NCBI GenBank assembly: GCA_964434225.1
Contig: CAYSUM010000004.1
Span: 45,293 to 109,292 of the forward strand
Length of the DNA: 64,000 bases
Source of the DNA: an uncultured Rhizobium sp.
GTDB taxonomy: Bacteria; Pseudomonadota; Alphaproteobacteria; Rickettsiales; UBA1997
Direction: 5' to 3'
In this document: positions 14,965 through 62,571 of the stretch, piece after piece
Layout of the letters: each line of letters opens with the position of its first letter
How positions within the stretch are numbered: the first letter of the stretch is position 1
Translations under genes and position numbers: made by a program
Notes under the pieces: model-generated
Told to the model about the DNA's origin: nothing
Databases searched by the model: none
The model's input: only the letters and a program-made list of their open reading frames with translations

Positions 14965-15831
14965 TCAATTTTTTGCCTTTCTGATTCTATTTGTTTTTTG
15001 ATTATTTATTGAGGTTTGTGGCAAGAAATTTTCTCGGCTCACAACTTTTTTGTTAGTTTTTTCTTCTAAAGCTAATCTGGCATCTTTGGCAATTTTGCCG
15101 CCTTTTTGCGCTGGAGATTTATTTTCTTCCAAACCCTTAGCCTGCATATTTTCAGCAATTTGGCGGGTGGAAACTTCGGCTAGAGCGGTAAAAATTAGCT
15201 CAACTTCGCTCATGTGGTCACGTAAGTTGTGGTTTTTTAATCCTTTAAGATTTTTGTGTTCAGAAACGCTCAAACCGCTCCATTCTTGGTGAATAATATT
15301 GGTGAGAATGGCAAATTCTTCACCTTTCTTCACACCACTTTCTTGCCAATAGTCAGTAAGTTTATTGCGGGTTTCTTGACCCATCATTCTTTGCTGAATC
15401 CACTTTTGGCTTCTGCCATGTTTTTGCCAATTTTCTCTAGCGCGGTTCAAAGATTGTTCGGGGTCGGAAATTTCTTGAATTCTTTCATTACCAACTTTTG
15501 CTAACCACATTTTGATTGGCTCAGCTTTTGGGCTTGGGATCGATTGAATTAAGCGGAAAATCGATTCAAGATCAGCAACGTCGGTAAGCCTCATTTTTCC
15601 ATCTTCAGCAACCATTTTCAACTGGTCACAATTTGTGACCACTTCACTTCCTTCTTGCTTCAAGCGGCTTTTTAGAGTTGTCCAATAGCTCTTTGCCTTC
15701 TTGTAATCACTTTGCTCAGTTAAAGCGGCAACAATGTCGATAACCGAGAAAAACCATTTTTGAGTTTTTTCATCAAAAGATTTACGGATTTTAAATTTTT
15801 CAAAAATTGCGAGGCTTTGTTGTTGGTTCAT
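14965..15831 (-). CDS. Bro-N domain protein with DinD-like C-terminal region
   Basis: WFFSVIDIVAALTE...LIQSIPSPKAEPIKMWLAKVGNERI matches the widespread Bro-N family. The C-terminal NLKGLKNHNLRDHMSEVEL resembles the DinD C-terminal half. Confidence 0.7.
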   Translation of the reverse strand: MNQQQSLAIFEKFKIRKSFDEKTQKWFFSVIDIVAALTEQSDYKKAKSYWTTLKSRLKQEGSEVVTNCDQLKMVAEDGKMRLTDVADLESIFRLIQSIPSPKAEPIKMWLAKVGNERIQEISDPEQSLNRARENWQKHGRSQKWIQQRMMGQETRNKLTDYWQESGVKKGEEFAILTNIIHQEWSGLSVSEHKNLKGLKNHNLRDHMSEVELIFTALAEVSTRQIAENMQAKGLEENKSPAQKGGKIAKDARLALEEKTNKKVVSRENFLPQTSINNQKTNRIRKAKN

Positions 15832-15904
15832 GGGTTAGATTTGGTTGATTTGCCTTAAAAAAACCTACGAAAAGACGGTTTTTTAAGAAGCTTCTTGGAC
15901 AATG

Positions 15905-16513
15905 TTAGCTAATTATTTTCAGAATTTTCTGAAAACTTTCCTCAATCGTTAAATTTCCATTATCAATTACAACCGCGTCTGGCGCGATTTTAAGTGGTGC
16001 GTCGGCGCGACCAAAATCATTTTCGTCGCGTCTTTTTAGCTGCGCTAAAATTTCTTCGTAATTGCTTTGCAGCTGATTAAAGCGGCGTTTGGCGCGAATT
16101 TCAACATCAGCCGTAACGAAAAATTTAAAGTCGGCATCCGCAGCAATTACCGTTGTCGTATCACGCCCATCAAGCACCGCGCCTTTTTCTGATTTTACAA
16201 AATCACGCTGCAAATCAAAAAGTGCGGCGCGCAATTTTGGATTTTTTGCAATAATTGAAGCAACCGCCCCAACCTTTTCGCTAAATAATTCTTCCAGCTC
16301 AAGATCACTTTCCGAAATATTTTTCACCAATTCGCCAATATTTTTTTCAAACTCACTTGGCTCAATTTTGCGCTCCATCACGCGCCACGCCACCAGCCGA
16401 TAAAGCGCGCCAGTATTAAGATAAGGCAAGTCAAAATGCGCCGCCAACTTTTTTGCCAACGTGCCTTTTCCCGAAGCCGAAGGACCGTCGATTGCGATTA
16501 CTAAATTTTTCAT
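15905..16513 (-). CDS. cmk: Cytidylate kinase
   Basis: IAIDGPSASGKGT P-loop followed by the LDGRD motif. Confidence 0.9.
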   Translation of the reverse strand: MKNLVIAIDGPSASGKGTLAKKLAAHFDLPYLNTGALYRLVAWRVMERKIEPSEFEKNIGELVKNISESDLELEELFSEKVGAVASIIAKNPKLRAALFDLQRDFVKSEKGAVLDGRDTTTVIAADADFKFFVTADVEIRAKRRFNQLQSNYEEILAQLKRRDENDFGRADAPLKIAPDAVVIDNGNLTIEESFQKILKIIS

Positions 16514-16520
16514 TTTTTAC

Positions 16521-17210
16521 TTATGATTGTTGCGAAGAGTTTTCCAGCCAGCTTACCCAAGCATCAAAAAGCGGACATTTTTCTCTGATTTCTTTCAAGC
16601 CAATATCTTCAGCTAAAGGAATTCCATCAGCTGTTTTTGAATAGCCGAAAACCATCTTTTCAATTCTTTTGCTAGGAGCTGTTTCTTTGCTGTCATTTAT
16701 TTCTTCTGGTGATTTTTCCTCTAAAATTTTTCCAAATTCACTTTGGATTTTTTGCTCAACTTTGCTGTCTCCATCACTCAACCTAGAAGACATTTTTTTA
16801 ATATTTGAAAACAACAAACCTTCAAACTCATACATTTGAATATAAGGCTTGAACCTTCTTGCTGCGGTATCTCCAGCTTTTTCTTTTACCGCTTCAAAAA
16901 TTGCATCTTCAACAATTTGCTTTTTCTCTTTGTGAGTGTTGTTGCTTTTTACTTTGCCTTTTCCGGGAACGTCAGACTTCATTCCATAGAAATCAAAGAA
17001 GGTTGTGCATAAAGCGTTTTTGTCACTTTGCAAAAGAGTGGTGATATCTCCAAGAATTCTTGCCTCTTTGACATCGCCGCCTTTTTTACCGGGCCTTCCA
17101 AGTATCGGAGAAGAAACATTGATTCCAAATCCCAATAAATACGGAGAAACTATTTTTTTTACAAAATCCCTTTCGGTTGAGCCCTCGCAAATAATTAACA
17201 CTCGAGTCAT
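16521..17210 (-). CDS. DUF4276-like (Toprim-like) protein, partner of the upstream ABC ATPase
   Basis: MTRVLIICEGSTERDFV... matches the DUF4276 N-terminal EGxxE pattern as I recall it. I prefer the ATG at 17210 because it forms an ATGA overlap with the ATPase stop codon; the track ORF extends to 17243. Confidence 0.6.
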   Translation of the reverse strand: MTRVLIICEGSTERDFVKKIVSPYLLGFGINVSSPILGRPGKKGGDVKEARILGDITTLLQSDKNALCTTFFDFYGMKSDVPGKGKVKSNNTHKEKKQIVEDAIFEAVKEKAGDTAARRFKPYIQMYEFEGLLFSNIKKMSSRLSDGDSKVEQKIQSEFGKILEEKSPEEINDSKETAPSKRIEKMVFGYSKTADGIPLAEDIGLKEIREKCPLFDAWVSWLENSSQQS

Positions 17211-18316
17211 TGCGGCATTCCTCCAAAAATGTCTTTTTCCCACAATTCACCAAGCGTGTAATCTTCAAGCCAGCGATCTAAATCTTCTTTGCTTAAACCA
17301 CCTTCTTCGCTTTTGTCAGGCAATCTACGGAACACCGTTTCATCATTTTTACGATCAGCAATTATCAAATCTTCAGGATCAAATTGACTAATGAGATTTG
17401 TGCTTTGAGTTGCAATTATTACTTGTTTTTTGGAAGCCTTAATTAACTCAGATAGAATGTTTAAAGCGTAAGGATGAAGACCAAGTTCTGGTTCGTCAAT
17501 AATGATGGTTTCTGGCTGAAATTCTTCTGGTTGCAAAAATACCGTTGCTAAACAAATAAAACGTAAAGTTCCGTCAGACAAAGCGTGAATACTCATTGGA
17601 AAGTCTTTACCACGCTCAAACCAATTAAGAACTATCCTATCGCCCAAAGAAGAGAAGGTAAAATTTCCAAAAAACGGTGCGACCAACCTAACAACTTCAA
17701 CTATTTTGTCATAATATTTTTTGTGCTTTTCCTGTAAATTTATTAGAAATGAAGCCAAATTTTCGGCATCAAATCTTAAAAAATTGTAATCACTTGTAAG
17801 TGAAGCCTGTTTAACTTTCGCATCTCTTCCAATATCATGAAAATGATAAGGTTGCCAAGTTCGCATCGCATTTAAAACATATTTATAAACCCCATTATCA
17901 TTTCCACGCTCTTCAATTTTACTTTCTTCGTGACCAGAGCCGCATGAGTAATCTCCCCCCAAATTCCAATAAGCACATTCTTTAGCAAAAACCATTTTAT
18001 TATTTTGCGTAGGAGACAACTCAAATTTGTAGCCGTTATTTCCAAAATATAATTCTCCATTTATTTGCCCCGTAACTTTTCTTCCATATCGCAACAATGC
18101 ATCAGGACCATTTCTAGCAACGGCAAATTGAAAATAAGTCTTAACACCATCTGGCTTGTAAAGCATCGTATTCACCATCTTAAGAAACCCAATAAAATTA
18201 GATTTCCCAGCGCCATTAGCGCCAATAAGAATATTTGTTTTTCTAAGCTCTAAATCACATTCCTTAATAGATTTGTAACCAGAAATTTTTATGCGCGTTA
18301 GTTGTTTTTCATTCAT
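17207..18316 (-). CDS. SMC/RecF-like ABC-type ATPase (AAA_15/21-like)
   Basis: Walker A GANGAGKSN, signature-like LSDGTLRF, Walker B IIIDEPELGLHP, H-loop ATQS. The start ATG overlaps the stop codon of the upstream gene (ATGA). Confidence 0.8.
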   Translation of the reverse strand: MNEKQLTRIKISGYKSIKECDLELRKTNILIGANGAGKSNFIGFLKMVNTMLYKPDGVKTYFQFAVARNGPDALLRYGRKVTGQINGELYFGNNGYKFELSPTQNNKMVFAKECAYWNLGGDYSCGSGHEESKIEERGNDNGVYKYVLNAMRTWQPYHFHDIGRDAKVKQASLTSDYNFLRFDAENLASFLINLQEKHKKYYDKIVEVVRLVAPFFGNFTFSSLGDRIVLNWFERGKDFPMSIHALSDGTLRFICLATVFLQPEEFQPETIIIDEPELGLHPYALNILSELIKASKKQVIIATQSTNLISQFDPEDLIIADRKNDETVFRRLPDKSEEGGLSKEDLDRWLEDYTLGELWEKDIFGGMPQ

Positions 18317-18882
18317 ATAATTTGAAAGAATTGCGTTTCTTGATAGCCGTGATTTTGAAAGATTGCGTAATCAAGAGAATTAATCACACCTGCCTCTTTT
18401 GCCGCTGAAGCAAGGTAAGTATTGTGCCTCATCAACTCTTTGCGCAAAAATAATCTTTTTTCGTCTTCAGAAGAAATTTTGTTAAATTCTTCCATTTTTT
18501 GAATTTCTTGCAAACGAGTTTGCACAGCAAAATAGCTCTGACCCATTGCCACTACTTCTTTTGCAGGGTCTGAGTTTTGCAAAATTAAATAGCAGGCATA
18601 ACGCGATAATTTTATATTAGAAAGCTCGCGAACCGCTCCACTACCGATCTCAACCATTTCGAGGATATCCTCGAAATGGTCTAAAGCCTTTTGTTTACTG
18701 TTATGGCAAGATTCTTGCGCTTTTGCAACCACTGGTAAGAAGTGGCGATATTCTGAATATTCTAAAATTTTCGCCAACTCGCGCGCCGTCCAAAATTCAT
18801 TACCATTTTCGTCAATTTTTCTGCTTTGTTCGAAAATTTTTAGCGCTGAGTTTGTTAATTTTTTTGGTGTGAGTTTTTTCAT
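18313..18882 (-). CDS. DinD-like (DNA-damage-inducible protein D family) protein lacking the C-terminal third
   Basis: It tracks E. coli DinD as recalled (YSEYRHF.PV..A...C, LSRYACYL..QN.DPAK, YFA.QTR, DEKRLFLR.EL, AIFQNHGYQ). After GYQ it diverges (ETQFFQII*) and ends inside the ATPase start codon. Confidence 0.7.
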   Translation of the reverse strand: MKKLTPKKLTNSALKIFEQSRKIDENGNEFWTARELAKILEYSEYRHFLPVVAKAQESCHNSKQKALDHFEDILEMVEIGSGAVRELSNIKLSRYACYLILQNSDPAKEVVAMGQSYFAVQTRLQEIQKMEEFNKISSEDEKRLFLRKELMRHNTYLASAAKEAGVINSLDYAIFQNHGYQETQFFQII

Positions 18883-18940: not shown

Positions 18941-20806
18941 TTAGCCAAGTGTTTTGGGATTAGATTCTTTAGAAATCTGAGTGTTATAAATTGTATTAAT
19001 CACACTTGATGGCTTTTTTTTGTCTACATAATCATTGCTTGGTTTTTGACCTTCCAATATTGGATTATATGATACTGAATTCTGTTCTGACTCTTCAAAT
19101 AAAATATCCTTTAAGTTCAACCCTTCTTCAGAATCAATTACACTCCTCAAAACTCTATTTGCAGTCTTCTTTATAAGATCATTTGCAGCTGTAACATGAC
19201 CAACAGTTCTGCGGAAAAAATGAGGGGTTAATTTTTCAAACAATGTTTTTTGTCTCAATCCAAAATCTTCAGCCATTCTATTGGCATCGAACTTGTATTC
19301 TTTTAGAAGATTAATTCTGATTGTTATCTCCAATTTATCTATCTGCCCTTCTTCTATCTGAGCTTCTGGTGACTCTTTTATAACGGAAGTTATCGATTTT
19401 GCTATTTCCTCAGCACGCTCTCCAGCGTCTAAAATTTTTCTAATTTCGAGGTTGCGAACCTCTGGCACAGAAGGAGTTGGCAATCCTAGCTCAAGCAATG
19501 TTTTTAAAAAATCAACTCTGCCATATTTTGCAGCTTGAACGGTGAGTAAAGGATCAGAATCACGAACTGCAAGACTCATAGGATAAACAAAACTAGAGTC
19601 CCCTATTTCTTTTAAAATGCTTGTTAGGGGTCTTGAGTTATAGAGCCCTATTGTTATTGGTACAGCCATTAATGGTAAAAGCGCGACGTTGATCGTGCCG
19701 TGCAAGAAAGCGCCAACTGCTTTGATTGGCCTTGTCACGTAATCGGAAAATGCCGATCTTTCATCTTCAGTTCTAATTTCACGCTCCAACAAATAATCAA
19801 AAATTTCTGCATTTCCCTCTTTAATAGCTTCATGAATTGGTCTTTCGTTGAACTCATTTTTTTCGTCTAGCGTTGCCCCATATTCTGCTAGTAGTTTTAA
19901 TGAATTGAGATCACCATTGCTTACAGCAGTATGTGCTAAACTTTGATCGTTTGCATCAAGATCAAATCCCAATTCTGCCAAGAACTTTATATCCTCGACC
20001 TTTTCCTCAATATTACCTCTTAAAACCGCGTCATGCAATGTCGTTACAAAAAACTTCTTCTCGGGCAAAGTTCTATTTTCTAAATCTTTAATTTTTTTGA
20101 TTAGCTCTTCTCTGTGCGGTATTTGCAAAAGGGTATTTACAAAATCATATTGTTGTCGTTTTACCAACTCTTGAGTTAAAAAATTCTCCAAGAAAAAGGC
20201 TATTTTTTCTGACCCTAGCTCTGAACCTTCGACCTGATTTTGTATAAAAGTTTTCAGTATTTTAATTTGTAAAGAATCATCAAAAGATACCGCTTTTTCT
20301 TTAAGCTTTTGCAGAACTTCGATATCATTTAATAATGGCAACAACAGCATTGATTTCTCTTCGCTGGATCGAATGATTTCTACAAAATCTTTTTGAATGT
20401 CATTACTAGCGCGCCTTTCAATATATTTTAAAAATATATTCTGACCTTGAAATATTTCCTGACCTTGATCGATCTCAAAAAAATCGGATAACGAAATTTT
20501 TCTAATGTTGATTAAGTAATTAAGAATCTTGCTATCTGGACGCTGTTTTACAGTTTGAGAAGTTTGAGAAAATTCTCCCTCCAATATTTCAGAAGAGGTG
20601 CCGTCGCAATAATTCATAATATCTTGAGTTGTTGCACCAACACTTAACAAAACTTGTAAAGATATTTGTTGCCCTTGCTCTAAAGCAAAAGCATTGCGGG
20701 CATTTACATCTGGATCCCTAGAAAGAGATTCTATTGAGGCTTGATTTTGTCTTTGCTCTTCAAAAATTTTTTCTTTAACCTGTTCCTGATTCATAGAGAC
20801 CTTCAA
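18941..20806 (-). CDS. Ankyrin-repeat protein (candidate host-interaction effector)
   Basis: 621 aa. Ankyrin-type repeats are visible: TTLHDAVLRGNIE..., HTAVSNGDLNSLKLLAEYGATLDEKN, RPIHEAIKEGNAEIFDYLLE. An internal hydrophobic segment follows. Confidence 0.75.
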   Translation of the reverse strand: MKVSMNQEQVKEKIFEEQRQNQASIESLSRDPDVNARNAFALEQGQQISLQVLLSVGATTQDIMNYCDGTSSEILEGEFSQTSQTVKQRPDSKILNYLINIRKISLSDFFEIDQGQEIFQGQNIFLKYIERRASNDIQKDFVEIIRSSEEKSMLLLPLLNDIEVLQKLKEKAVSFDDSLQIKILKTFIQNQVEGSELGSEKIAFFLENFLTQELVKRQQYDFVNTLLQIPHREELIKKIKDLENRTLPEKKFFVTTLHDAVLRGNIEEKVEDIKFLAELGFDLDANDQSLAHTAVSNGDLNSLKLLAEYGATLDEKNEFNERPIHEAIKEGNAEIFDYLLEREIRTEDERSAFSDYVTRPIKAVGAFLHGTINVALLPLMAVPITIGLYNSRPLTSILKEIGDSSFVYPMSLAVRDSDPLLTVQAAKYGRVDFLKTLLELGLPTPSVPEVRNLEIRKILDAGERAEEIAKSITSVIKESPEAQIEEGQIDKLEITIRINLLKEYKFDANRMAEDFGLRQKTLFEKLTPHFFRRTVGHVTAANDLIKKTANRVLRSVIDSEEGLNLKDILFEESEQNSVSYNPILEGQKPSNDYVDKKKPSSVINTIYNTQISKESNPKTLG

Positions 20807-31831: not shown

Positions 31832-32515
31832 ATGAGAAAATTATTTCCGATTATCGCAGCAGCTTCTTTATTGTCTTCTTGCGAAAGTATGAGCACTAGT
31901 CCAGATCCTTCAAAATCGAACCGCAGTTTCAGCAATATTGATCGGGTTTCTCACAATAAATTTCACAAAAAAACCGCACCAAATACTAAGTTGACAAACT
32001 TAGAACCAACCGATTTAACGAAATATAATCTCAATAATTTTTACGACAATCCCAGACAAGATAACGCACAAACCAATCAAAGCGCCGTGTTCAATTCTGA
32101 TGGGCGTTATCAAGGATATTTTAAAGTGGGAAATCCTTATGAAATTCAAGGAGTTTCTTACTTTCCACAAAATTATGAAGAGTTTGAAGAAAGCGGCGTT
32201 GCCTCGTGGTACGGCCCTGATTTTCACGGCAAACCAACTGCCAATGGCGAGGTTTATGATTCTTACACCATGACCGCTGCACACCCTACTTTACCACTTC
32301 CATCAATGGTTCGCGTAACTAATTTACGCAATGGTAAAAATGTAATTGTCCGCGTTAATGACCGCGGCCCTTTTTCTAAAAATCGTATTATTGACGTTTC
32401 GGAAAAAGCTGCCGATGAGTTAGGATTTAAACAATATGGCACGACAACTGTGCGCATTCAATTGCTGCGCAATGATACGGATGAACTTTTAGAGAAGTTG
32501 AAAATTAAGAATTAA
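31832..32515 (+). CDS. rlpA: Septal ring lytic transglycosylase RlpA-family lipoprotein
   Basis: Lipobox LLSSC. DPBB block GVASWYGPDFHGKPTANGEVYD...TAAHPTLPLPSMVRVTNL.NGK.V.VRVNDRGPF. Confidence 0.9.
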   Translation: MRKLFPIIAAASLLSSCESMSTSPDPSKSNRSFSNIDRVSHNKFHKKTAPNTKLTNLEPTDLTKYNLNNFYDNPRQDNAQTNQSAVFNSDGRYQGYFKVGNPYEIQGVSYFPQNYEEFEESGVASWYGPDFHGKPTANGEVYDSYTMTAAHPTLPLPSMVRVTNLRNGKNVIVRVNDRGPFSKNRIIDVSEKAADELGFKQYGTTTVRIQLLRNDTDELLEKLKIKN

Positions 32516-35075: not shown

Positions 35076-36176
35076 TTGAAACTCTATTCCCGCTACATTT
35101 TTCATAAAATATTAATCGGCTTTGCTGGCTGTATCTCGATTTTAATTTCGCTGATCTGGTTTTCGCGCGCTATTAGTTTCGTGAAATATGTCACTGAAAA
35201 TGGCATTGCCATTGACCAATTTTTCTATCTTTTTGTCCTTATTTTGCCGTGGTTGCTGATTTTTATTATCCCGATTTCTTTAATGATTTCGATTCTGATA
35301 ATTTATAACCGACTGATCTCCAGCAATGAAATGGCGATCTTAAAAAATTCTGGTCTGACGAAATTTTCGCTCAGCAAACCCGCCGCTTATTTGACGATAT
35401 TTTGCACAATATTTTGCTTTGCAATTTCGTTTTATTTTATGCCTTACGCCAATAAAAAATTGCGACTTTCTAGAACTGATTTGCGCAATAATTACACCAA
35501 TCTTTCGATTAATCCGCAAACTTTCGAAAGTTTAAAAAGCATGACAATGTATGTAAAAAATCGCAATGAAGACAATCGTCTTTTTGGAATTTTATTGCAT
35601 GACGAACGCGCCGCAGAATATTCCACCACCATCACGGCAGAAACTGGAAATATTGTCGCTCAAGATAATTCTGCCTTACTTTACATGGAAAATGGCACGG
35701 TGCAAAAATTTAATTACAGCAACCAAAAATCAGAGATTCTGCATTTCGATAATTACGTTTTTAATTTGACCGAAGGCCGAGAAAGCATCGATAAATTTTC
35801 TTGGAAATCAAAAGAGCGCTACCTTGATGAATTGATTAATTATGAACCCGAAACCCCCGATTACGACATCGCCAGATTTCGCACCGAAATTCACCAAAGA
35901 TTTACTTACCCTTTATTGCCGATGATTTTTGCGACCATCTCTTTAGCCTGCATTATGCGCGGTTCATTCAGCCGCAGAGGAAATTCTTCCAACATTATTT
36001 TGGCAGTTTTTGTTTCGACAATTTTTTTGATTTTAACGATCTTGCTTTACAACGCCATGGAATCATCGCCAAAAATAACTCCGCTGCTTTACCTAAATTT
36101 TCTGTTATTTTTTGGCGGCGGATTGCATTTCTTACACGAAGCAAGTCGCAAATCCGAACATAAAACCAACTCGTAG
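35076..36176 (+). CDS. lptF: LPS export ABC permease LptF
   Basis: TTG start. YIFHKIL N-terminus, six TM segments with a large periplasmic loop, and pairing with lptG. Confidence 0.85.
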   Translation: MKLYSRYIFHKILIGFAGCISILISLIWFSRAISFVKYVTENGIAIDQFFYLFVLILPWLLIFIIPISLMISILIIYNRLISSNEMAILKNSGLTKFSLSKPAAYLTIFCTIFCFAISFYFMPYANKKLRLSRTDLRNNYTNLSINPQTFESLKSMTMYVKNRNEDNRLFGILLHDERAAEYSTTITAETGNIVAQDNSALLYMENGTVQKFNYSNQKSEILHFDNYVFNLTEGRESIDKFSWKSKERYLDELINYEPETPDYDIARFRTEIHQRFTYPLLPMIFATISLACIMRGSFSRRGNSSNIILAVFVSTIFLILTILLYNAMESSPKITPLLYLNFLLFFGGGLHFLHEASRKSEHKTNS

Positions 36177-36178
36177 AA

Positions 36179-37294
36179 ATGAAATTTTTTAAAAAGATCA
36201 ATCGCTATATTGCTGGTCATTTTTTGACCAAATTTTTGCAAATTACTTGCGGATTTTCGTTGCTGATTTTTCTAATTAATCTTTTGGATACGATTGAAAA
36301 AGTTCGCGGTTCTGACGAAGTTCCTTTTGCGATCACCGCTTTTATGGCTTTCTTACAAATTCCTGATTTTTTAAACGAGATTGCGCCTTCATTAATTCTG
36401 ATCGCCGCAATCACAACTTTCTTTTTTCTTTCTTCCAAAAGCGAAGTTACAATCATTCGTTCCAGCGGATTTTCTTTGTGGCAAGTCTTACAGCCAATTG
36501 CTTTTTCAGCTTTATTATTGGGGATTTTTTGGGTGATAGTTTTCGGACCAATTTCGGTGATGATGGGCGAAAAATTTAATAATCTTGAAGGCAAATATGT
36601 TCGCAAAGAAAGACGTGAAATGGTCGCGCCCGCCAACGGAATTTGGCTTAAACAAATCAACGTCAATAATCCCGAAGAAGATATTATTATTCAGGCAAAA
36701 AAAGTTGTGAAAAACACGCTAGAATTGGACGATGTGACTTTGTGGTTCTTCGATAAAAATGGTCAATTTTATCAAAAAATCGACGCCGAAAATATGTTTT
36801 TAGAAAACCACGATTGGCTGCTGCAAAATATCACGATTAACGATTCCAAAGATCTAAACAAAAAACTTAAAGCCTACGTCGTTCCCACCAATCTTGAGGC
36901 TGATTTTATTACTCAAACCGTAATTAATAATTTCCAAAACGTAAAATTATTCTCAGTTTTTCAACTGCCAAAATTGATTAATGACTTACAGTCATCTGGT
37001 TTTGCTTCGACAAAATTTAGGGTTTATTTCAATTCGCTTTTAAGCAAACCATTTCTGTTTGTGGCAATGACATTAATCGCCTGCTTCTTTGGCATTACTC
37101 ACACCAGAAATAATAAATCGATTTTTATGATGTTTGTCGGAATCACTTTAGGATTAATTTTATATATCACCTCTGGCATCGTTAATGCGCTTGGATCTTC
37201 TGGCTTAATTCCGATCTTCGCTTCCACTTGGACAATCGCAATTATCTGTCTTTCGATTGGTATTTTATTGATCTATCGCAAAGAAAAATTTTAG
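36179..37294 (+). CDS. lptG: LPS export ABC permease LptG
   Basis: Same YjgP/YjgQ architecture, directly after lptF. Confidence 0.85.
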   Translation: MKFFKKINRYIAGHFLTKFLQITCGFSLLIFLINLLDTIEKVRGSDEVPFAITAFMAFLQIPDFLNEIAPSLILIAAITTFFFLSSKSEVTIIRSSGFSLWQVLQPIAFSALLLGIFWVIVFGPISVMMGEKFNNLEGKYVRKERREMVAPANGIWLKQINVNNPEEDIIIQAKKVVKNTLELDDVTLWFFDKNGQFYQKIDAENMFLENHDWLLQNITINDSKDLNKKLKAYVVPTNLEADFITQTVINNFQNVKLFSVFQLPKLINDLQSSGFASTKFRVYFNSLLSKPFLFVAMTLIACFFGITHTRNNKSIFMMFVGITLGLILYITSGIVNALGSSGLIPIFASTWTIAIICLSIGILLIYRKEKF

Positions 37295-37414: not shown

Positions 37415-38032
37415 ATGAAAAATAAAATCCTCATCGCGATTTCAATCGTCGCTTTAACTTTCTCTTCTTCTTGCAGCAAAGGTGGAAAACCCACTGAAGT
37501 CAAAAATAACAATTTATCAAATCTACCTTCTTGGGTTTTAGATCCTAACATGCCAGAAGGCGTTGCCGCTGTTGGTATTGCCAGCCCATCAAAAGGCGGA
37601 ATTAAATTTCAAATTCCTGCTGCCGAGCTTGATGCTAAAGCAAATATCGCCGCCACAATTCAATCTGAAATTAGTCGCGTAACCAAAGATTCTCTAAGAT
37701 CAGCTAATGTCAACGGAGCTGATGACGTTGAACAATTCTTCGCTCAAGCCAGCAAAGAAGTGGTAAAAAATCTGCCACTTTCTGGTGTCAAAAGAATCAA
37801 CATTTTCCAAGCCAATGACGGCACACTTTACGTGCACATGATCTTGAAAAACGAAGATTACAGCAAGTTCTTAAACGACAGCGAAAAATCTATGGGCGCT
37901 CAATTAAAAAAATCTGGTTTAGCCCGCGATAACATCAAAAAAAGTGAAGAAGCCAGCAAAGCTATTTTTGATGAATTAGAAAAAGAAAGAGGCAACAAAT
38001 CTTCTGCCGCAGAAAAACCTAAAGCTGAATAA
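37415..38032 (+). CDS. LPP20-family lipoprotein
   Basis: Lipobox LTFSSSC. PSWVLDP...GVAAVGIA...AAELDAKANIAATIQSEI is typical of LPP20/FlgP-like domains. Confidence 0.7.
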   Translation: MKNKILIAISIVALTFSSSCSKGGKPTEVKNNNLSNLPSWVLDPNMPEGVAAVGIASPSKGGIKFQIPAAELDAKANIAATIQSEISRVTKDSLRSANVNGADDVEQFFAQASKEVVKNLPLSGVKRINIFQANDGTLYVHMILKNEDYSKFLNDSEKSMGAQLKKSGLARDNIKKSEEASKAIFDELEKERGNKSSAAEKPKAE

Positions 38033-38083
38033 TAAAATACTCCATCCACTTGATTGGATGGAGTACATCACAACTCAAAATTT

Positions 38084-38251
38084 ATGAAAAAACTTCTCAC
38101 TATTTTAGCACTTCTAGCAATCGTTTCCTGCGCTTCCGAAACCGTCGCTCAAAAAGAAATCACCAAAACCATCAAACATCGAGGCGCTTCTGAACGTATT
38201 AACTCAACCAACAACAACAGTGACAATCTTTTTAAAGAAATGGATCAGTAA
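38084..38251 (+). CDS. Small lipoprotein (55 aa)
   Basis: MKKLLTILALLAIVSCAS lipobox. The start is taken at the internal ATG 38084 of the track ORF. Confidence 0.5.
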   Translation: MKKLLTILALLAIVSCASETVAQKEITKTIKHRGASERINSTNNNSDNLFKEMDQ

Positions 38252-39224
38252 AAATCTAGCGTTCTTAGCGCTAGTTATTTTTAGCCTCATATCCTGCAGC
38301 GGCAATAATAAAGCCAACGCGGATACTCCGTCATGGTATATTTCACCAAAACAAAATAATACCCAAAATCTTTACGGCGTTGCCGCTGGTGCAAATTTAG
38401 AAGAAGCTACCAAATCGGCTTTGGCTGATGCCGCAGCTCGATTGATGACCAGCATTTCATCAGAATCAAGCTTGTTGCGCGAAGAAGATAAAAGCGGCGT
38501 CAACGAAGAAATGCGCCAACAAGTCAAACAAAATATCGAAAAAATTGATTTCACCAATTTCAAAGTTTCAAATAGTAAACAAGCTGGTCCGCAGCTTTTT
38601 GTTGAGGTTGAAATTGCACGCTCACCTTTTATTTCTGATCAAAAAGACAAAGTCAGCTTTGCTGAAATTCAAGTCTCAAATTTAGAGAAAAACCTCAGCA
38701 ACGCCAATCCAATTCAAAAGCGCGTTAACTTGATAAAAATTCTTGATTTGGAAAAACAAATTGAGCTTTCCAGCCGCATTCTGCAAGGATCTGGGGAAGA
38801 AATGCATTTAAAAGATAAATTAAATCGTATCGCAGAATTTCAAAATCAATTCAATCAATTAACCGACAAAATTGAATTTTATTTCGAAATAAATTCTCCA
38901 AAAGAAATCTCGCAAGTGATTCGTACTGCGCTAAATAAAGAAAAAATCAAAATCGCCAATGCGCGCAGCAACAGCGCAAATCAAATTGTAATTGCGATTC
39001 GTTCTTCATTCAACAGCAACGAAATTTACGGCGCTCATATCACAAAATTAAAAATTAATTTTGAAAATTTATCGGGCGGAAAAACCGTCGCCAGCAACTC
39101 GGTTGAAGTTACCGGAAGTTCAGCAATTTCTAAAAAAGAATCTTATTTCGCTTCGGTTAAAGCCCTAGAAGACAAAATTTCGCAAGATGGAATTTTAAAA
39201 GTACTTGGGATTATTAATTACTAA
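38220..39224 (+). CDS. LPP20-like N-terminal domain lipoprotein (334 aa)
   Basis: GTG start. Lipobox FSLISCSG. PSWYISP...LYGVAAGANLEEATKSALADAAARL repeats the LPP20-like pattern. Confidence 0.6.
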   Translation: MTIFLKKWISKNLAFLALVIFSLISCSGNNKANADTPSWYISPKQNNTQNLYGVAAGANLEEATKSALADAAARLMTSISSESSLLREEDKSGVNEEMRQQVKQNIEKIDFTNFKVSNSKQAGPQLFVEVEIARSPFISDQKDKVSFAEIQVSNLEKNLSNANPIQKRVNLIKILDLEKQIELSSRILQGSGEEMHLKDKLNRIAEFQNQFNQLTDKIEFYFEINSPKEISQVIRTALNKEKIKIANARSNSANQIVIAIRSSFNSNEIYGAHITKLKINFENLSGGKTVASNSVEVTGSSAISKKESYFASVKALEDKISQDGILKVLGIINY

Positions 39225-39260
39225 GAACAAACCGTAAAACCACTAAACAACTAAAAATTT

Positions 39261-40313
39261 ATGAAATTTAAAAATCTCGCACTTCTTTTATTTCTCAGCT
39301 CTTGCTCTACAACCATAAGCCATTTCGACGATTATCAAAAACAATTTTTGAGCAAAACTAAATTCATGCCAACGCCAGAAAATATTGCCGGCAAAGCACC
39401 TAAAGTTGTAGTTTTTGCGCTCGATCAAAATAATAACGAGATCGCCAATCAAACCAATTTAGGCGATTCTTTAGCCAATAATGTTGAAAATGTTTTAAGT
39501 AAAAATCGTTTAGGCGAAATCGTTGATCGCAAAGCTGCTGGCAAATTACAAAAAGAAATTTCTCTGGCTGAAATGAATAAAACCGGTTCTTACAAAGGCC
39601 CGATTGTCGCTGATTATGCGGTTTCTGGCGCTATTTCTAATGCTGGATTTACTAGCAAATATTCTAGCGGTTCAACCTATTACAACCCACAAAGCCGCCA
39701 GATGGTTTCAATTCCACCAAAATATACTTACTCTTCCGATGTCGCTGGAAATCTTAAAGTATATGAATTGCCATCTTTAGCGGTTGTTGAATCAATCGAA
39801 TTTGCTGGCAAAAAAAGCCGCTCGGAAGCTGTCCAACAAGATGGCGGATTCGCTCTTGGCGGAATTCAAATTGGCGGTAAAAAAGTTGAAGGCACAAAAC
39901 GCGACGACAGCTTGGTGCGCAAAGCTGGTGAAGATGCAATCTCTGAAATCGAAGTTGATATCAAAAATTTCTTCGCCAAAAAAGGTTATATTTTGGAAAA
40001 ACGCATGCTGAAAGATAAAGCAATTTTCAAGATCTCTTTGGGCTCAACCGATGGCATTAAACAAGACGATAAATTTGAAGTTAGCGGCCAATATGAATCT
40101 GAAAACGCCCTAACCAACCAAGTGGAAATTGAGCGCAGAATTATTGGCATGGGGTCAGTTTCTGATATTATCGATCCAAAAACCGCTTGGGTGGTGATAG
40201 ATGATGCTAAAAAAGCTGAAACCATTCGTTTGGGAGATTCGGTCAAAATGAAATATAAAAAAGGTCGCTTCGCTGGAGTCACAAAACTTGCAACTTCAAT
40301 GTTGGAACAATAA
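39261..40313 (+). CDS. CsgG/LpoB/TolB-N-like fold lipoprotein with C-terminal beta-rich domain
   Basis: Lipobox LFLSSCST. KVVVFALDQNN...LGDSLANNVENVLSKNRLGEIVDRKAAGKLQKEISLAE matches the CsgG-family N-terminal pattern. Confidence 0.55.
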   Translation: MKFKNLALLLFLSSCSTTISHFDDYQKQFLSKTKFMPTPENIAGKAPKVVVFALDQNNNEIANQTNLGDSLANNVENVLSKNRLGEIVDRKAAGKLQKEISLAEMNKTGSYKGPIVADYAVSGAISNAGFTSKYSSGSTYYNPQSRQMVSIPPKYTYSSDVAGNLKVYELPSLAVVESIEFAGKKSRSEAVQQDGGFALGGIQIGGKKVEGTKRDDSLVRKAGEDAISEIEVDIKNFFAKKGYILEKRMLKDKAIFKISLGSTDGIKQDDKFEVSGQYESENALTNQVEIERRIIGMGSVSDIIDPKTAWVVIDDAKKAETIRLGDSVKMKYKKGRFAGVTKLATSMLEQ

Positions 40314-41176
40314 TGCAATTTAAAAATAATATCCGCGAACTTGCTGATCTTTACGATTATTTTGTTTTTGACGTTTGGGGCGTAATTCATGACGGCACTT
40401 CGTCCTACGCTGGCGCTGCCGATGCAATTAAATTCCTGCGCGCCAAAAATAAAAAAATCTGCTTCCTATCAAACGCACCGCGCCGCGCTTTTAAAGTTGC
40501 CGCGGTTCTACAAAAATACGATATTTCCAGCGATCTTTACGATTTCATCTTAACTTCTGGAGAAGCTGCATATTTTGATTTTACAAAAAATCAGAGAAAT
40601 AATTTCGCTGATTTCGGTCCAAATTATTTTTATATCGGCCCAAAAAAAGACGCCGATTTACTTGACGGGCTCAATTACAAAATGGTTGAAGATGCCTCTT
40701 GCGCCAACATCGCCATCACCACCGGATTCGACAAAGACGACTCAACTTTAGAAGAAAAAATGTCGCAAATTTTGTTGGCAAAAAAATTCAATCTACCGTT
40801 GATCTGTGTCAATCCCGATTTGATTGTAGTTAAACAAAATGGCGCCGAATTGCTTTGCGCTGGCGCAATCGCAGCTGAATATAAAAAACTTGGCGGCAAA
40901 GTTTCATATTATGGCAAACCTTATCAAACCGTTTACAAAATAGTTTGTGAAATGTTTGGCTGCGATTCTCATCAAAAAATCCTCGCAATTGGCGATGGCA
41001 TGGAAACCGACATTAAAGGCGCCAATGATTTTGGCATTGACTCCGCGTTAATTACGGGCGGAATTTTATCAAATATTCTTGGCGTAAAATATGGCGAAAT
41101 TGCTGATAAAAATAAACTCGAAACCGTTTGCAAAAATTACCAGCTTTTTCCAAAATTCGTCATTCCTGGTTTATAA
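40313..41176 (+). CDS. HAD-superfamily IIA hydrolase
   Basis: YDYFVFDVWGVIHDG (DxWG motif), LSNAPR and GDGMETDIKGA. The start overlaps the upstream stop codon (TAATG). Confidence 0.8.
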   Translation: MQFKNNIRELADLYDYFVFDVWGVIHDGTSSYAGAADAIKFLRAKNKKICFLSNAPRRAFKVAAVLQKYDISSDLYDFILTSGEAAYFDFTKNQRNNFADFGPNYFYIGPKKDADLLDGLNYKMVEDASCANIAITTGFDKDDSTLEEKMSQILLAKKFNLPLICVNPDLIVVKQNGAELLCAGAIAAEYKKLGGKVSYYGKPYQTVYKIVCEMFGCDSHQKILAIGDGMETDIKGANDFGIDSALITGGILSNILGVKYGEIADKNKLETVCKNYQLFPKFVIPGL

Positions 41177-44153: not shown

Positions 44154-45893
44154 TCAAAAACTTTTTAGAATTTCTCCGAATAATTTCGCTGGCAAAGATC
44201 CGCCCGTCACCTTATTCGTCGCAGAATTGTCATCATTTCCGATCCAAACTCCAACAACATAATCATCGTTAAAGCCAACAAACCAAGCATCGCGATAATC
44301 TTGGCTGGTTCCAGTTTTTCCATAAATATTTTGTGCGACATTAGCATTTTTTCCGGTTCCAGATTCTACAACCGCGCGCAAAACTTCCTTTATTTTCTCT
44401 TGAGCTTTCTGAGAAATTACATTGCCAATCCCAGAAGATTCACGGTCGTAGAGCGATTCGTCTTTGTCATTTTTTATCGAAATTATCGAATAAGGAATCA
44501 CCGCTTCGCCGCCATTGGCAATTGTAGCGTAAGCGCTAGTAAGCTCGAACAGACTTACTTCCGTGGTTCCCAGCGCAATCGTTAAATCGTTTTTTTCAAT
44601 TTTCGAAATAATTCCCAAACGTCTTGCGGTTTGGGCAATCGCACCTTTTTCCTGTTGACGCGCCAATTGTATTGCCACCGAATTTAGAGATTCCGCGAAA
44701 GCGCGCTTCAACGTAACTTCGCCCAAATAATGATTGTTGTAATTTTCTGGCAACCAAACTCCAACATTGATCTTTTTATCTTCAATACTGTCATCGACAG
44801 CAGCGCCATTTTCAAAAGCGGTTAAATAAACGAAAGTTTTGAACGCCGATCCAGCCTGTCTTTTGGCATAAACTGCGCGATTAAACTGACTTTTTTGATA
44901 GTCTTTGCCGCCAGACATTGCTAGCACCGCACCATCTTTCATCATTACCACAATCGCGATTTCTGACTTACCGATTTTGTCAGAATTTTTTGCAACAAAT
45001 TCATTTTCAACTTCCTCTAACTTGGCCTGAAGTCTTTCTTCCAGAGTTGTGGTGACGATAATTTTTTTATCCCGCAAATTCTTTTTTGAAATAAAGTCAG
45101 CAAATTGATCATGTACGAAGTCAGCAAAATAAAGCCTTTGTGACTTTTCAACTTTGTAAGAAACATCTTGAGCAACTTCTGATAAATTTTTGGCGCTCAA
45201 AAATCCAGCTTCAGCCATATTCTCTAAAACCTCGTCAGCTCTGGTTTGCGCCAATTCCATATTATTTTTTGGTGAAAATTTTGACGGCGCCTTCAATAAA
45301 CCAGCCAACATCGCAGCTTCGTTTAAATTAATATTGGCAACATTTTTGCCAAAATAAAATTTTGCCGCATTGCCCACGCCATAGTTTCCGGCGCCAAAAT
45401 AAGCGCGATTTAAATAGCAGGTAATAATTTGTTCTTTGGTGAATTTACGTTCCAATTGCAACGCCAGCAAAATTTCTTGGATTTTGCGTTTGAAATTTCG
45501 ATCTGGCGTTAAGAATAATAATTTCGCCAATTGCTGCGTGATTGTACTGCCGCCTTGCACAATATGACCAGCTTCGTGATTGGCGTACGAAGCGCGTAAA
45601 ATGCCAAAAATATCAATTCCGTAATGCGAAAAAAAACGGCGATCTTCAGTCGCAATTACTGCATTTATAAGGTTTGATGGCAATTCATAAAAATCAATTT
45701 CGCTGCCGTAAATGCCGCCGAATTTTGTAATTGGCTCGTCGTCAGAATAATTTATTTCAATGGTTTGGCGATTTTTTTGTGCCTCCATTTCGCTCAAACT
45801 TGGTAAATCGTGAAGATAATAAACTAGCGCCATCGCGCCAAAAATCGTGATCCAGATTGAGAAAATAAATCCCCACTTCAAAATGAATTTCAT
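44154..45893 (-). CDS. Bifunctional class A penicillin-binding protein (GT51 transglycosylase + transpeptidase)
   Basis: GT51 motifs EDRRFFSHYGID and GGSTITQQL. Transpeptidase motifs SAFK, SLN and KTGT. Confidence 0.9.
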   Translation of the reverse strand: MKFILKWGFIFSIWITIFGAMALVYYLHDLPSLSEMEAQKNRQTIEINYSDDEPITKFGGIYGSEIDFYELPSNLINAVIATEDRRFFSHYGIDIFGILRASYANHEAGHIVQGGSTITQQLAKLLFLTPDRNFKRKIQEILLALQLERKFTKEQIITCYLNRAYFGAGNYGVGNAAKFYFGKNVANINLNEAAMLAGLLKAPSKFSPKNNMELAQTRADEVLENMAEAGFLSAKNLSEVAQDVSYKVEKSQRLYFADFVHDQFADFISKKNLRDKKIIVTTTLEERLQAKLEEVENEFVAKNSDKIGKSEIAIVVMMKDGAVLAMSGGKDYQKSQFNRAVYAKRQAGSAFKTFVYLTAFENGAAVDDSIEDKKINVGVWLPENYNNHYLGEVTLKRAFAESLNSVAIQLARQQEKGAIAQTARRLGIISKIEKNDLTIALGTTEVSLFELTSAYATIANGGEAVIPYSIISIKNDKDESLYDRESSGIGNVISQKAQEKIKEVLRAVVESGTGKNANVAQNIYGKTGTSQDYRDAWFVGFNDDYVVGVWIGNDDNSATNKVTGGSLPAKLFGEILKSF

Positions 45894-60340: not shown

Positions 60341-61171
60341 ATGTCTATTTTATCTCAACGCCAAGACCAATTAACCTCAGTTTTACAAGCTTGGAATAGC
60401 CTTGCTGAAAAAACACAAAAAGACACCATCAATTTGGTGATGCCTTTAATTGAGAGCGCCAGTCTTTTTACAAAAATTTCTCCAAGCCAAGCTCTGGAAG
60501 CAGAACTTGAGGCTTTCAAAAACAATTATAGCTCAATTTATCAAACCGACATTTCAGCTTTAGGAGCTTCCGATTTCTCTCCCGAGTCAATGCTAATTCT
60601 TGAAAAAATTCACGATATCGATTGTTTGGAAGAAAAATCGTCCGAAGAAAAAAGAGAATTAGTCGTCGCGCATCTTACAGCAGAAGCTGGCTTGACACTG
60701 TCAGAATTCAGAAAAAAACTTCTCAAAGAGCTCGACCATAAATATCAACATGCTCACGCCCGCATTTCGTGGAATTATGGAAAATTGTCCGACGCCATTC
60801 TTCTTCACAATAACCAAGGCGGATTGTCAGCAAAGTTCAATAAAATTGGCGCCATTGAAGATGAGCGAGAATTTTTCTCACAACTGGTTGACCTAAGCAG
60901 AACCATCAACATTCCTGGCAATTTCGATCTTTTAAAAACGCAGTTTGGAATTGATGGAATTGAAGAACATACCGTAATTAATCAAGGCACTTTATATCGC
61001 GCCAATCTTGATAATCCTGCTTTGATTCATCAAATCGAAGGCACCGAAAATGGAGAAAATCTTTTCACAAAAACGCAGGAATTTTTTACTCTACAATCTC
61101 AAAAAAAAGCATCAAAACTGATATCGAAGCCTTGGGAGAAAAATTGGGAGTCACCGATCCCAAAACCATAA
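60341..61171 (+). CDS. Hypothetical protein, probably the 5' part of a split or frameshifted gene
   Basis: No family recognised. The frame ends 63 nt after an A8 run, and the -1 frame continues into the next ORF. Confidence 0.5.
   Translation: MSILSQRQDQLTSVLQAWNSLAEKTQKDTINLVMPLIESASLFTKISPSQALEAELEAFKNNYSSIYQTDISALGASDFSPESMLILEKIHDIDCLEEKSSEEKRELVVAHLTAEAGLTLSEFRKKLLKELDHKYQHAHARISWNYGKLSDAILLHNNQGGLSAKFNKIGAIEDEREFFSQLVDLSRTINIPGNFDLLKTQFGIDGIEEHTVINQGTLYRANLDNPALIHQIEGTENGENLFTKTQEFFTLQSQKKASKLISKPWEKNWESPIPKP
61102..61108 (+). other. A_AAA_AAA slippery heptamer within an A8 run (61101-61108): candidate -1 frameshift or indel site
   Basis: The zero-frame codons are CAA AAA AAA GCA. The -1 frame is open from 60979 and reads ...SKKSIKTDIEALGEKLGVTDPK into ORF 61132..62571. 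Confidence 0.55.
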
Positions 61172-62571
61172 AAACTTGGCAAGACGATTATGTGGCCAAT
61201 GTTAAACCCAATGTCGCGCTGACTATTGGATATGAAATGGAATTTTTATTATTGCCAGTCGGCGGTCCAGCTGGCGCAGCGCAATATTATGAAGAGCAAA
61301 GCGATTTTGAAAAATTGATTAAAGGTTCTGCCGATTTGGATTCCAGAAAGAAAATGCGGGAAAATTATGGCTTTCCACGCGGATATATAGAAGACGCGCC
61401 ACACCTTTTATTGGCTCACACTCCGAATATTTTGCTGCTTTTTTCCAAAGGAGAATTGCAAGAAATTGCGCAGAAAAATAATCAAATAAATCGCGATAAA
61501 AGAGGCGATGTAAAATCTTTCTTGGTCAATAGAAAAACTGGCGATGCCGCAAAAGATAAACTATTTGATGCCGCAATTGGAAACATCGATCTTTTATCCA
61601 GCGAAGAAATTTTCTTTTTCGATCTTTTATTTTTGCGCAGCGATCAAGCAGCCGCATGTAAAATCGAGCTTGATGGCGTATTTGAATTTGACAAAACTAT
61701 TCAAGAAAATTTAGCCAATATTCTTCCCAACATTGCCCATAAAGCCTCTTTTTATTCACAAACTCTCGACATGATTCGCGCTCACGAAGTTTCAATCGGA
61801 CCATTTGAGATTGACGAATCAATCGCCAAAAAAAATATCGCAATCTTTTATTTACGAGGAGTTGCGCAAGAGCATGGTTTGCGCGCAAAAGATCGCGACG
61901 TCCAAATAAATATCGGCGCTTTTCAAGGTGGCAGCGTTTTATTTCAAGTTGATGGAAGTTTAATGACGATTACCGCTCCAAATCAAGAAGCTCAAGTCAA
62001 TGGGTCAACCGCTAAACTGCTTTTAGCAATTCAAAAAGGATTACGAAACGCCATCGAAGATTATCCTTCAATTGCACGCGAAGGCCAAAACGAAGTCAGC
62101 GTTGCGGTTGATCGAAAAAAAGGATTTGATGGCCTTTTGAAAGGAACGCCATTTTATAAATCTTACAGCAAAGAAGCTGGACATTCGGCAGATTCATCAG
62201 CTTTTCTGGTTCATCGCGACAATACTGGAAAATCAGGAATGATACGATTGGCGCGCATCAGCGACAAAATTTCTGTTGCTGAAATCAGACTTATCGGAAA
62301 CAATACTCACGTTCCTAATCATGACGAATCAGTTCGGCTAGTTTTTAACGGAGCTGGAGTTTTGCCAGAAATTATTTTGCCTTACTTAATTACCGAAGTA
62401 AAAAAATTGGGCGATTTATCTGCAGATAGAAACACAGCGGTTTTGGTTGAGCACGACGGTTCAATAACTAAATTGCCTCCCGCAAAAATAGATTACAAAA
62501 AAAGTCGTGATAAACCAAATCCATTTTTAACAACAGTGGAATCTGAAAATGCGACAGATTTACCAAACTAA
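61132..62571 (+). CDS. Hypothetical protein with glutamine-synthetase-like (carboxylate-amine ligase fold) motifs; probably the 3' part of the split gene
   Basis: The only start is a TTG. Motifs TIGYEMEFLL, AHEVSIGPFEI and MIRLARI...AEIRLIGNN recall the GS catalytic blocks ExE, HHEV..GQ.E and R..IR...E.R. Confidence 0.5.
   Translation: MGEKLGVTDPKTIKTWQDDYVANVKPNVALTIGYEMEFLLLPVGGPAGAAQYYEEQSDFEKLIKGSADLDSRKKMRENYGFPRGYIEDAPHLLLAHTPNILLLFSKGELQEIAQKNNQINRDKRGDVKSFLVNRKTGDAAKDKLFDAAIGNIDLLSSEEIFFFDLLFLRSDQAAACKIELDGVFEFDKTIQENLANILPNIAHKASFYSQTLDMIRAHEVSIGPFEIDESIAKKNIAIFYLRGVAQEHGLRAKDRDVQINIGAFQGGSVLFQVDGSLMTITAPNQEAQVNGSTAKLLLAIQKGLRNAIEDYPSIAREGQNEVSVAVDRKKGFDGLLKGTPFYKSYSKEAGHSADSSAFLVHRDNTGKSGMIRLARISDKISVAEIRLIGNNTHVPNHDESVRLVFNGAGVLPEIILPYLITEVKKLGDLSADRNTAVLVEHDGSITKLPPAKIDYKKSRDKPNPFLTTVESENATDLPN

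Follow-up and report, generated by a model that had tools for sequence, protein, structure and literature searches.

Four lipoprotein genes of a Rickettsiales-type bacterium: a possible non-flagellar counterpart of the Helicobacter pylori lpp20 operon

What might four lipoprotein genes do that stand in a row behind the lipopolysaccharide (LPS) export permease genes, in a stretch of DNA where no flagellar or curli genes are seen? The question is raised by 64,000 nucleotides (the window) of contig CAYSUM010000004.1 (assembly GCA_964434225.1), from an uncultured freshwater bacterium placed among the Rickettsiales, in which an earlier note made from the sequence alone had pointed to four consecutive open reading frames (ORFs), here called LP1 to LP4 (Table 1), as a possible distinct envelope-associated complex. 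The range given there, 37415-41176, holds the four lipoprotein genes in 37415-40313 and also takes in a HAD hydrolase gene at 40313-41176. The nearest characterised relative of the cluster is the lpp20 operon of Helicobacter pylori (HP1454/HP1456), which the note did not name, and we put at roughly one in two the probability that the four genes encode an outer-membrane-anchored, non-flagellar lipoprotein scaffold, a counterpart of the lpp20 operon built from parts of the kind seen in the flagellar H-ring of Vibrio. The description that fits the cluster best is that of an Lpp20/HP1454-type lipoprotein operon of non-flagellar kind, with a lipidated, FlgT-like fourth member.

All four genes lie on the same strand, and the signal sequence at the start of each product is basic and hydrophobic and runs up to a lipobox cysteine, as had been read from the letters; the cysteine is conserved in orthologues, being invariant in LP1 (Cys20, 25 orthologues) and in LP4 (Cys15, 58 orthologues) and at least 90% conserved in LP3 (Cys26, 59 orthologues). 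Asp at +2 occurs in none of the four. A loose lipobox pattern is found in 6 of the 62 non-overlapping window ORFs of at least 100 aa, and three of those six stand side by side in the cluster. The genes are tightly packed: LP1 and LP2 are separated by 51 nt and LP3 and LP4 by 36 nt, the 3' end of LP2 runs 32 nt into the start of LP3, and the stop codon of LP4 shares the letters TAATG (40311-40315) with the start of the HAD gene, an overlap that the earlier note had described correctly. A hairpin and terminator scan detected no convincing terminator within the four-gene cluster, and a promoter and terminator scan did no better than on shuffled sequence. The spacer between LP1 and LP2 does contain an inverted repeat, which lacks a T-run on the plus strand and therefore supplies no clear terminator for the cluster; possibly it serves RNA processing or stability, or tunes the expression of LP1 against that of the downstream genes.

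The connection to H. pylori runs through LP3, which is an HP1454-type three-domain protein and a member of the LPP20 family. It exceeds the threshold of Pfam LPP20 (PF02169) with 30.5 bits against a cutoff of 25.9, the same family is present in most of its orthologues, and the profile built from those orthologues matches HP1454 (PDB 4kzs; E 8.5e-8) over profile positions 30-227, well past the LPP20 domain. In its AlphaFold2 (AF2) model, with a predicted local distance difference test score (pLDDT) of 80, an LPP20/SHS2 domain is followed by a three-helix middle and an LptE-like alpha/beta C-terminal domain. A Foldseek search of the PDB places the model closest to 4kzs (E 2e-7 over 241 columns), with LptE structures next, which match about 125 C-terminal residues (E 3e-5 to 3e-4, template modelling score to target 0.45-0.65). 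LP1 had been grouped with LP3 on the strength of a shared PSW motif (LPSWVLDP...GVAAVGIA in LP1, TPSWYISP...YGVAAG in LP3), a grouping that LP3 bears out through its Pfam match and LP1 through its likeness to LP3. By itself LP1 reaches 17.4 bits against PF02169 (E 6e-3), under the cutoff; a weak match of this kind recurs in 21 of its 25 orthologues, and hhalign aligns the LP1 profile to the LPP20 domain of LP3 with 92% probability (E 5e-7). Searched against PDB sequences, the LP1 profile did not find Lpp20.

For LP4, which has neither a Pfam nor an NCBIfam match, the evidence comes from its fold. The AF2 model (pLDDT 82, predicted template modelling score 0.74) consists of an N-terminal domain of CsgG/LpoB/TolB-N type, a middle rich in beta structure and an FlgT_C-like C-terminal domain, and the N-terminal segment of the protein is conserved and partly ordered. 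The model adopts the CsgG/LpoB-like N-terminal fold and the beta-rich remainder that had been predicted, but its closest kin is not CsgG. The best Foldseek matches, which span the full length in about 370 columns and give LP4 the three-domain fold of FlgT, are to Vibrio alginolyticus FlgT, both in the crystal structure (3w1e, E 6.3e-13) and in the cryo-electron microscopy structure of the LPHT-ring (8z5n, E 9.4e-13). CsgG comes next, aligned over 200-260 columns with E 1e-6 to 1e-4, ahead of LptE, PelC, HpaA and GNA1162. At the level of sequence LP4 falls outside FlgT, by Pfam (models FlgT_N, FlgT_M, FlgT_C) as by profile search, and profiles of LP4 orthologues and distant relatives found no FlgT, CsgG or LpoB among PDB sequences at E<=10. 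Weak Pfam matches among 113 diverse LP4 relatives agree with the FlgT-type fold, as FlgT_C is matched in 19 (best 1.6e-7), CsgG in 5 (best 2.7e-7), LpoB in 2, and FlgO and FlgT_M in one each.

The second-ranking matches invite the idea that LP4 forms oligomers that act as a secretion channel of CsgG type in the outer membrane, with LP1-LP3 as periplasmic adaptors or substrates. LP4 shares with CsgG the lipid anchor and a periplasmic alpha/beta domain of one superfold (Foldseek E ~1e-6), some source labels read 'CsgG', and the five relatives with a weak CsgG match point the same way. FlgT nevertheless matches better by about six orders of magnitude, LP4 has no match to Pfam CsgG (PF03783), and its FlgT_C-like C-terminal domain has no counterpart in CsgG; moreover, neither the window nor any locus fetched contains csgA/B/E/F-like genes. 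The loop at residues 191-213 (QQDGGFALGGIQIGGKKVEGTKR), at the position of a CsgG transmembrane hairpin, is on inspection short, Gly-rich, charged and unconserved in distant relatives, and no plausible transmembrane hairpins were seen. We consider a secretion channel very improbable.

The family to which LP4 belongs is large, with at least 551 clusters at 50% identity when relatives are collected at E<=1e-3; with a limit of E<=1e-30 the number is 195. Almost all members are 320-360 aa long and carry a lipobox, and across 113 diverse members the lipidated cysteine is the sole invariant column. Nearly all come from metagenomes; in cluster look-ups for 30 representatives, Geomonas was the only cultured organism named. 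We found no literature on this family.

Fold kinship with FlgT and, through the LPP20 domain, with FlgP raises the question of whether the genes are flagellar accessories (of the FlgT/FlgP/FlgO type), either serving a flagellum encoded elsewhere in the genome or left over from a lost one. Homologues of LP4 are found almost entirely in metagenome-assembled genomes (MAGs) of freshwater or other aquatic 'Rickettsiales' or alphaproteobacteria, and the closest relative of the locus (L005), with an LP4 90% identical to that of the window, is Rickettsiales bacterium UBA2645. This genome, together with C-137 (L071) and an aquifer MAG, has been assigned to Ca. Gamibacteraceae, a family that is reported to have 'no flagellar or chemotaxis genes' (Schön et al., preprint). 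A Pfam survey of the larger ORFs of the window likewise revealed no flagellar or curli genes, as the earlier note had said, and the possibility it had named of a flagellar system elsewhere finds no support in the family of the closest relative. A FlgT proper would be encoded in a flagellated organism, in company with flgO/flgP and the LP-ring and T-ring partners; here flagellar genes were seen neither in the window nor beside the module in the inspected loci, and that family is reported to lack flagella. The relic variant is countered by the degree of conservation: averaged over 19 complete loci, LP1 shows 72% identity, the highest of the neighbourhood, and LP4 70%, compared with 61-64% for LptF/G and 56.5% for PpiC, which indicates strong purifying selection and argues against decaying genes. 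LP4 is lipidated, whereas FlgT is not among the listed tethering lipoproteins of the Vibrio motor, and the LP4 profile misses FlgT. In favour of a flagellar role, the ancestor of the Rickettsiales has been inferred to be flagellated, HP1454 and HP1456 bind FlgP and FapH, and a partial LP4-like lipoprotein lies beside fliI in one Campylobacterota MAG; H. pylori hp1456 and Campylobacter jejuni cj0091 mutants are, on the other hand, fully motile. A flagellar role is, in our estimate, the remotest of the explanations discussed here. The Campylobacterota lipoprotein (272 aa; L078:9599-12008) resembles LP4 in its C-terminal part only (37%, residues 229-330), is convergent with its FliI-type ATPase neighbour, and may be a genuinely flagellar relative of the LP4 family.

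In 55 related loci with at least 3 kb of sequence upstream of LP4, all four occur in the same order in 38, so that the co-conservation of the set was borne out. LP2, whose mature part is only about 39 aa long and polar in a precursor of 55 aa, sits between LP1 and LP3 in 46 loci, its sequence keeping the motif SASxRINSxxSNSxxxxKELDE, and it is this constancy of position and motif that marks it as a real gene; Pfam and NCBIfam searches with it gave nothing usable, and it is restricted to the Gamibacteraceae-type lineage. We set aside the idea that LP2 is an LptM-like factor, as its motif is not known to resemble LptM.

Two further cases deserve mention in their own right. The MAG JAZKII01 holds, besides a full cluster (L031), a divergent LP4 (50% identity; L065:10001-11038) next to a 1131-aa ankyrin-repeat protein, which could be a true paralogue or the product of a binning mixture. 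A more distant Rickettsiales-type genome (GCA_038141805.1; L081:6191-9080) has the cluster with its LP3 homologue split into two ORFs and with several neighbours fragmented, which suggests either a frameshift-rich assembly or pseudogenisation.

Co-occurrence within one clade could reflect nothing other than shared gene order, and the four products might then be lipoproteins without a common function, side by side only through the synteny of streamlined genomes. Synteny in this clade does extend across the whole neighbourhood, from thiS through the NAD kinase gene, and there are loci in which LP4 stands alone. Outside the clade, however, an LP3-like gene directly adjoins an LP4-like gene in every distant locus with enough flanking sequence: in L068 and L069, in Thiomargarita (L073, in reversed order), in a member of the Campylobacterales (L076), in Geomonas oryzisoli (L080), and on sediment and soil contigs (L082, L084, L085-L091, L093-L095 and L097). 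An LP1-like short LPP20 gene adjoins as well in L080, L082, L084, L085-87/91, L088 and L093. The genes around these distant modules vary from locus to locus, and the annotated gene lists that we read for selected loci contained no lpt, HAD, flagellar or curli genes. Because the adjacency recurs across several phyla, in unrelated contexts and in different orders, inherited synteny does not explain it, and we judge mere synteny an improbable explanation. The recurrence outside the clade instead identifies LP3 plus LP4 as the conserved core, with LP1 as a frequent third member. We found no description of the LP3-LP4 pairing in the literature.

The same comparison bears on the LPS genes. Every Gamibacteraceae-type locus with the cluster has it immediately behind lptFG, the products of lptF and lptG themselves matching Pfam LptF_LptG at E 1e-60 and 3e-56, and the earlier note had found this position suggestive but perhaps coincidental. 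It is natural to ask, then, whether the cluster serves LPS transport or outer-membrane biogenesis as an accessory, the more so as the C-terminal domain of LP3 matches many LptE structures, LP4 matches LptE weakly, and LptDE has a small lipoprotein partner, LptM, entries of which are among the LP3 Foldseek matches. The adjacency is missing in every distant lineage, though, and two related loci (L041 and L062) have lptFG without LP1-LP3; nor does Pfam find LptE in these proteins, whose fold belongs to a generic superfold of periplasmic lipoproteins that PelC, CsgG and TolB-N also have. The Campylobacterota, moreover, hold both an LptE (Cj1090c, 7rxu) and an HP1454 homologue. An LPS-related role is thus quite improbable in our view. 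The HAD gene presents a similar case, as it lies 3' of LP4 in most Gamibacteraceae-type loci and in no distant locus. The lptFG and HAD adjacencies are lineage-specific synteny. The HAD-IIA hydrolase gene, although by its overlap coupled translationally to LP4, was rejected as a component since only one lineage links it to LP4, and is not considered part of the putative module.

A last family with a claim on LP4 is LpoB: LP4 might activate a class A penicillin-binding protein (PBP), with LP1-LP3 as accessories of cell-wall synthesis. The N-terminal domain of LP4 does have an LpoB/TolB-N-type fold, one LP4 relative bears the JGI label 'LpoB', HP1457 has been termed an LpoB homologue, and a gene for a class A PBP is found 3.8 kb downstream in the window and directly upstream of LP4 in four related loci. 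Yet window LP4 has no match to Pfam LpoB (PF13036), which appears only weakly in 2 of the 113 relatives; it has an FlgT_C-like domain, and a partly ordered N-terminal segment in place of the long disordered linker of LpoB. The neighbouring PBP, at 579 aa with Transgly and Transpeptidase domains, leaves no room for the UB2H docking domain, and in distant taxa the PBP adjacency is missing. We regard an LpoB-type function as unlikely. The PBP adjacency was itself set aside as functional evidence, since local rearrangement accounts for it in a genome that is syntenic and streamlined. In the four loci (L036, L039, L040 and L046, ~7.6-11 kb in each), which form one sub-lineage, LP4 stands alone between the class A PBP gene upstream and the HAD and PpiC genes; HAD and PpiC genes are still found 3' of LP4 in most of the loci with LP4 alone.

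Each of the familiar assignments, to FlgT, FlgP, CsgG, LpoB or LptE, therefore fails at least one defining test, and motility, curli secretion and LPS transport are probably not what the module does. What remains is the comparison with the lpp20 operon. In H. pylori, HP1454 and Lpp20 (HP1456) share one operon, lpp20 is flanked by HP1455 and HP1457, and Lpp20, HP1454 and HP1457 co-occur in vesicles. FlgP and FapH are binding partners of both HP1454 and HP1456, and HP1454 also interacts with itself; work on the proteins of the operon has mainly concerned their nature as antigens, their presence in vesicles and their binding to motor accessories. LP3 is homologous to HP1454 and has the same three-domain plan, LP1 is a short LPP20-type lipoprotein as Lpp20 is, a small ORF lies beside the Lpp20-type gene in both (HP1455 there, LP2 here), and both have a lipoprotein of the LpoB/CsgG superfold, HP1457 by description and LP4 by its model. 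The differences are that LP4 has 350 aa and an FlgT_C-like domain, whereas Cj0091, the C. jejuni orthologue of HP1457, has 207 aa; that HP1454 has been described as secreted, whereas LP3 carries a lipobox; and that the host here comes from a family reported to be non-flagellated.

The second comparison is with the H-ring of Vibrio, in which FlgT and the lipoproteins FlgP (of LPP20/SHS2 fold) and FlgO form concentric rings tethered to the outer membrane, with a loop of FlgP entering the clefts between FlgT subunits; the motor lipoproteins listed in the structure paper as tethering to the outer membrane are FlgH, FlgP and FlgO, and FlgT is not in that list. Here a similar set of parts recurs: an FlgT-fold protein, one or more LPP20/SHS2-fold lipoproteins and a small lipoprotein. 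In contrast to the H-ring, LP4 has its own lipobox, FlgT is undetectable in its sequence, the context is not flagellar, and FlgH, FlgI and MotY partners are missing. In C. jejuni a 57-aa lipoprotein, PflE, is needed for the outer-membrane localisation of FlgP, so that by analogy the pairing of an LPP20-family protein with a lipoprotein of about 55 aa (LP2 has 55) has a precedent, although LP1 and LP3 carry lipoboxes of their own and there is no flagellum. With LpoB and LptE the likeness is that of a common outer-membrane lipoprotein superfold, the N-terminal domain of LP4 resembling LpoB and the C-terminal domain of LP3 resembling LptE; LpoB differs from the present case in that no UB2H-bearing PBP is at hand, and LptE in that the lpt linkage is confined to one lineage. 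When LP3 was compared with the LP4 family by hhalign, the signal peptides alone were aligned, and the C-terminal domain of LP3 and the N-terminal domain of LP4 thus have no detectable sequence kinship.

We infer from these comparisons an outer-membrane location, a physical assembly and a structural role for the four proteins. LP1-LP4 would be co-expressed and their N-terminal lipids would anchor them in the inner leaflet of the outer membrane, beneath which they would assemble as a periplasmic hetero-oligomeric scaffold. LP3 (HP1454-like) and LP4 (FlgT-like) would form its core and LP1 (Lpp20-like) a frequent third subunit, and LP2 may act as a helper that places or stabilises the LPP20-type partners, as PflE does for FlgP. 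The task of such a scaffold would most likely be structural, to stabilise the outer membrane or space it relative to the cell wall, or to frame another envelope machine. It is tempting to go further and to speculate that LP3 and LP4, with or without LP1, form a free-standing lattice under the outer membrane, ring- or disk-like in shape and present in bacteria among which are lineages reported to be non-flagellated, that is the source or the sister of the flagellar H-ring and basal-disk proteins FlgT and FlgP, an idea that is tentative and on balance rather doubtful.

Several observations weigh against the scaffold. In thirteen of the 55 related loci a highly conserved LP4 stands without any LPP20-type ORF in the surrounding 10 kb or so, which implies that LP4 can be encoded, and perhaps be active, without adjacent partners. 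A beta-hairpin insert correlates with ring formation in FlgP and FlgT, and the insert at residues 77-113 of the LPP20 domain in the LP3 model is helical and partly of low confidence, not the hairpin that FlgP has. Deletion of hp1456 in H. pylori left motility, bacitracin resistance and motor structure unchanged, and growth and swimming were normal in the C. jejuni mutant of Cj0091, so that the known relatives come without a clear envelope phenotype. Finally, the absence of flagella is a family-level statement of the preprint joined to the sequence at hand, and not a reading of the source genome. Of the distinct envelope complex that the earlier note had proposed, then, the co-conservation and the non-flagellar context are supported, and the physical complex is what we infer, with the 13 loci lacking LP1-LP3 standing against it.

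Elsewhere in the window, the Pfam survey shows genes for housekeeping and for the envelope, together with an ankyrin protein and a defence island of small size (Table 1), and Rfam finds two tRNAs only and no rRNA. Ankyrin proteins are typical of host-associated Rickettsiales; in contrast to that signature, the window encodes many biosynthetic genes. Outside the cluster there are also further lipoproteins, one YajG-like and one RlpA-like, and, upstream of secB, two ORFs of no assigned family.

Table 1. Features of the window, with the lipoprotein cluster and its neighbours first
Feature	Position	Strand	Description
lptF	35076-36176	+	LPS export permease gene, upstream context; Pfam LptF_LptG
lptG	36179-37294	+	LPS export permease gene, upstream context; Pfam LptF_LptG
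LP1	37415-38032	+	205 aa; lipobox LTFSSSC, then SKGG; short Lpp20-like lipoprotein with one LPP20/SHS2-type domain
Inverted repeat	38037-38066		Perfect 12-bp stem in the LP1-LP2 spacer; from terminator/hairpin scan and sequence inspection
LP2	38084-38251	+	55 aa from ATG (mechanical ORF start: TTG 38054); lipobox LAIVSC, then ASE
LP3	38220-39224	+	334 aa from GTG; lipobox FSLISC, then SGN; three-domain HP1454 homologue
LP4	39261-40313	+	350 aa; lipobox LFLSSC, then STT; FlgT-like lipoprotein
HAD-IIA hydrolase (TIGR01459)	40313-41176	+	NCBIfam 185.7 bits; neighbour of LP4
Class A PBP	44154-45893		579 aa; Transgly and Transpeptidase
YajG-like Lipoprotein_16 protein	8425-8988	-	PF03923, E 5.5e-16
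Small defence-type island	14965-18882	-	Among housekeeping genes
Bro-N protein	14965-15831	-	PADLOC PDC-S13, E 2.7e-122
cmk	15905-16513	-	
HEC-01B/DUF4276	16521-17243	-	E 2e-71
HEC-01A AAA_15 ATPase	17207-18316	-	E 2.5e-129
Second Bro-N-like ORF	18313-18882	-	
Ankyrin-repeat protein	18941-20806	-	621 aa; adjoins the defence island
RlpA-like DPBB_1 protein	31832-32515	+	With lipobox
Two overlapping ORFs	60341-62571	+	276 and 479 aa, without Pfam match; upstream of secB

For the biology of these bacteria and their relatives, the LP4-type proteins emerge as a large and as yet unnamed lipoprotein family of FlgT-like architecture, encoded almost always beside an HP1454-type gene. The lpp20 operon of H. 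pylori, for decades an antigen locus, now stands within a broader context of non-pathogenic and non-flagellar bacteria, and this wider setting implies that its basic role is probably related to the envelope and not to the host or to motility. The LP3-LP4 module is a candidate for the pool of lipoproteins to which the outer rings of high-torque flagellar motors are related, and from which they may even descend; if a ring- or disk-like lattice of this kind does exist, it would be an unrecognised and widespread envelope structure, seen so far almost only in uncultured bacteria. As the cultured Geomonas oryzisoli has the trio of LP3-like, LP4-like and LP1-like genes, the question is directly open to experiment.

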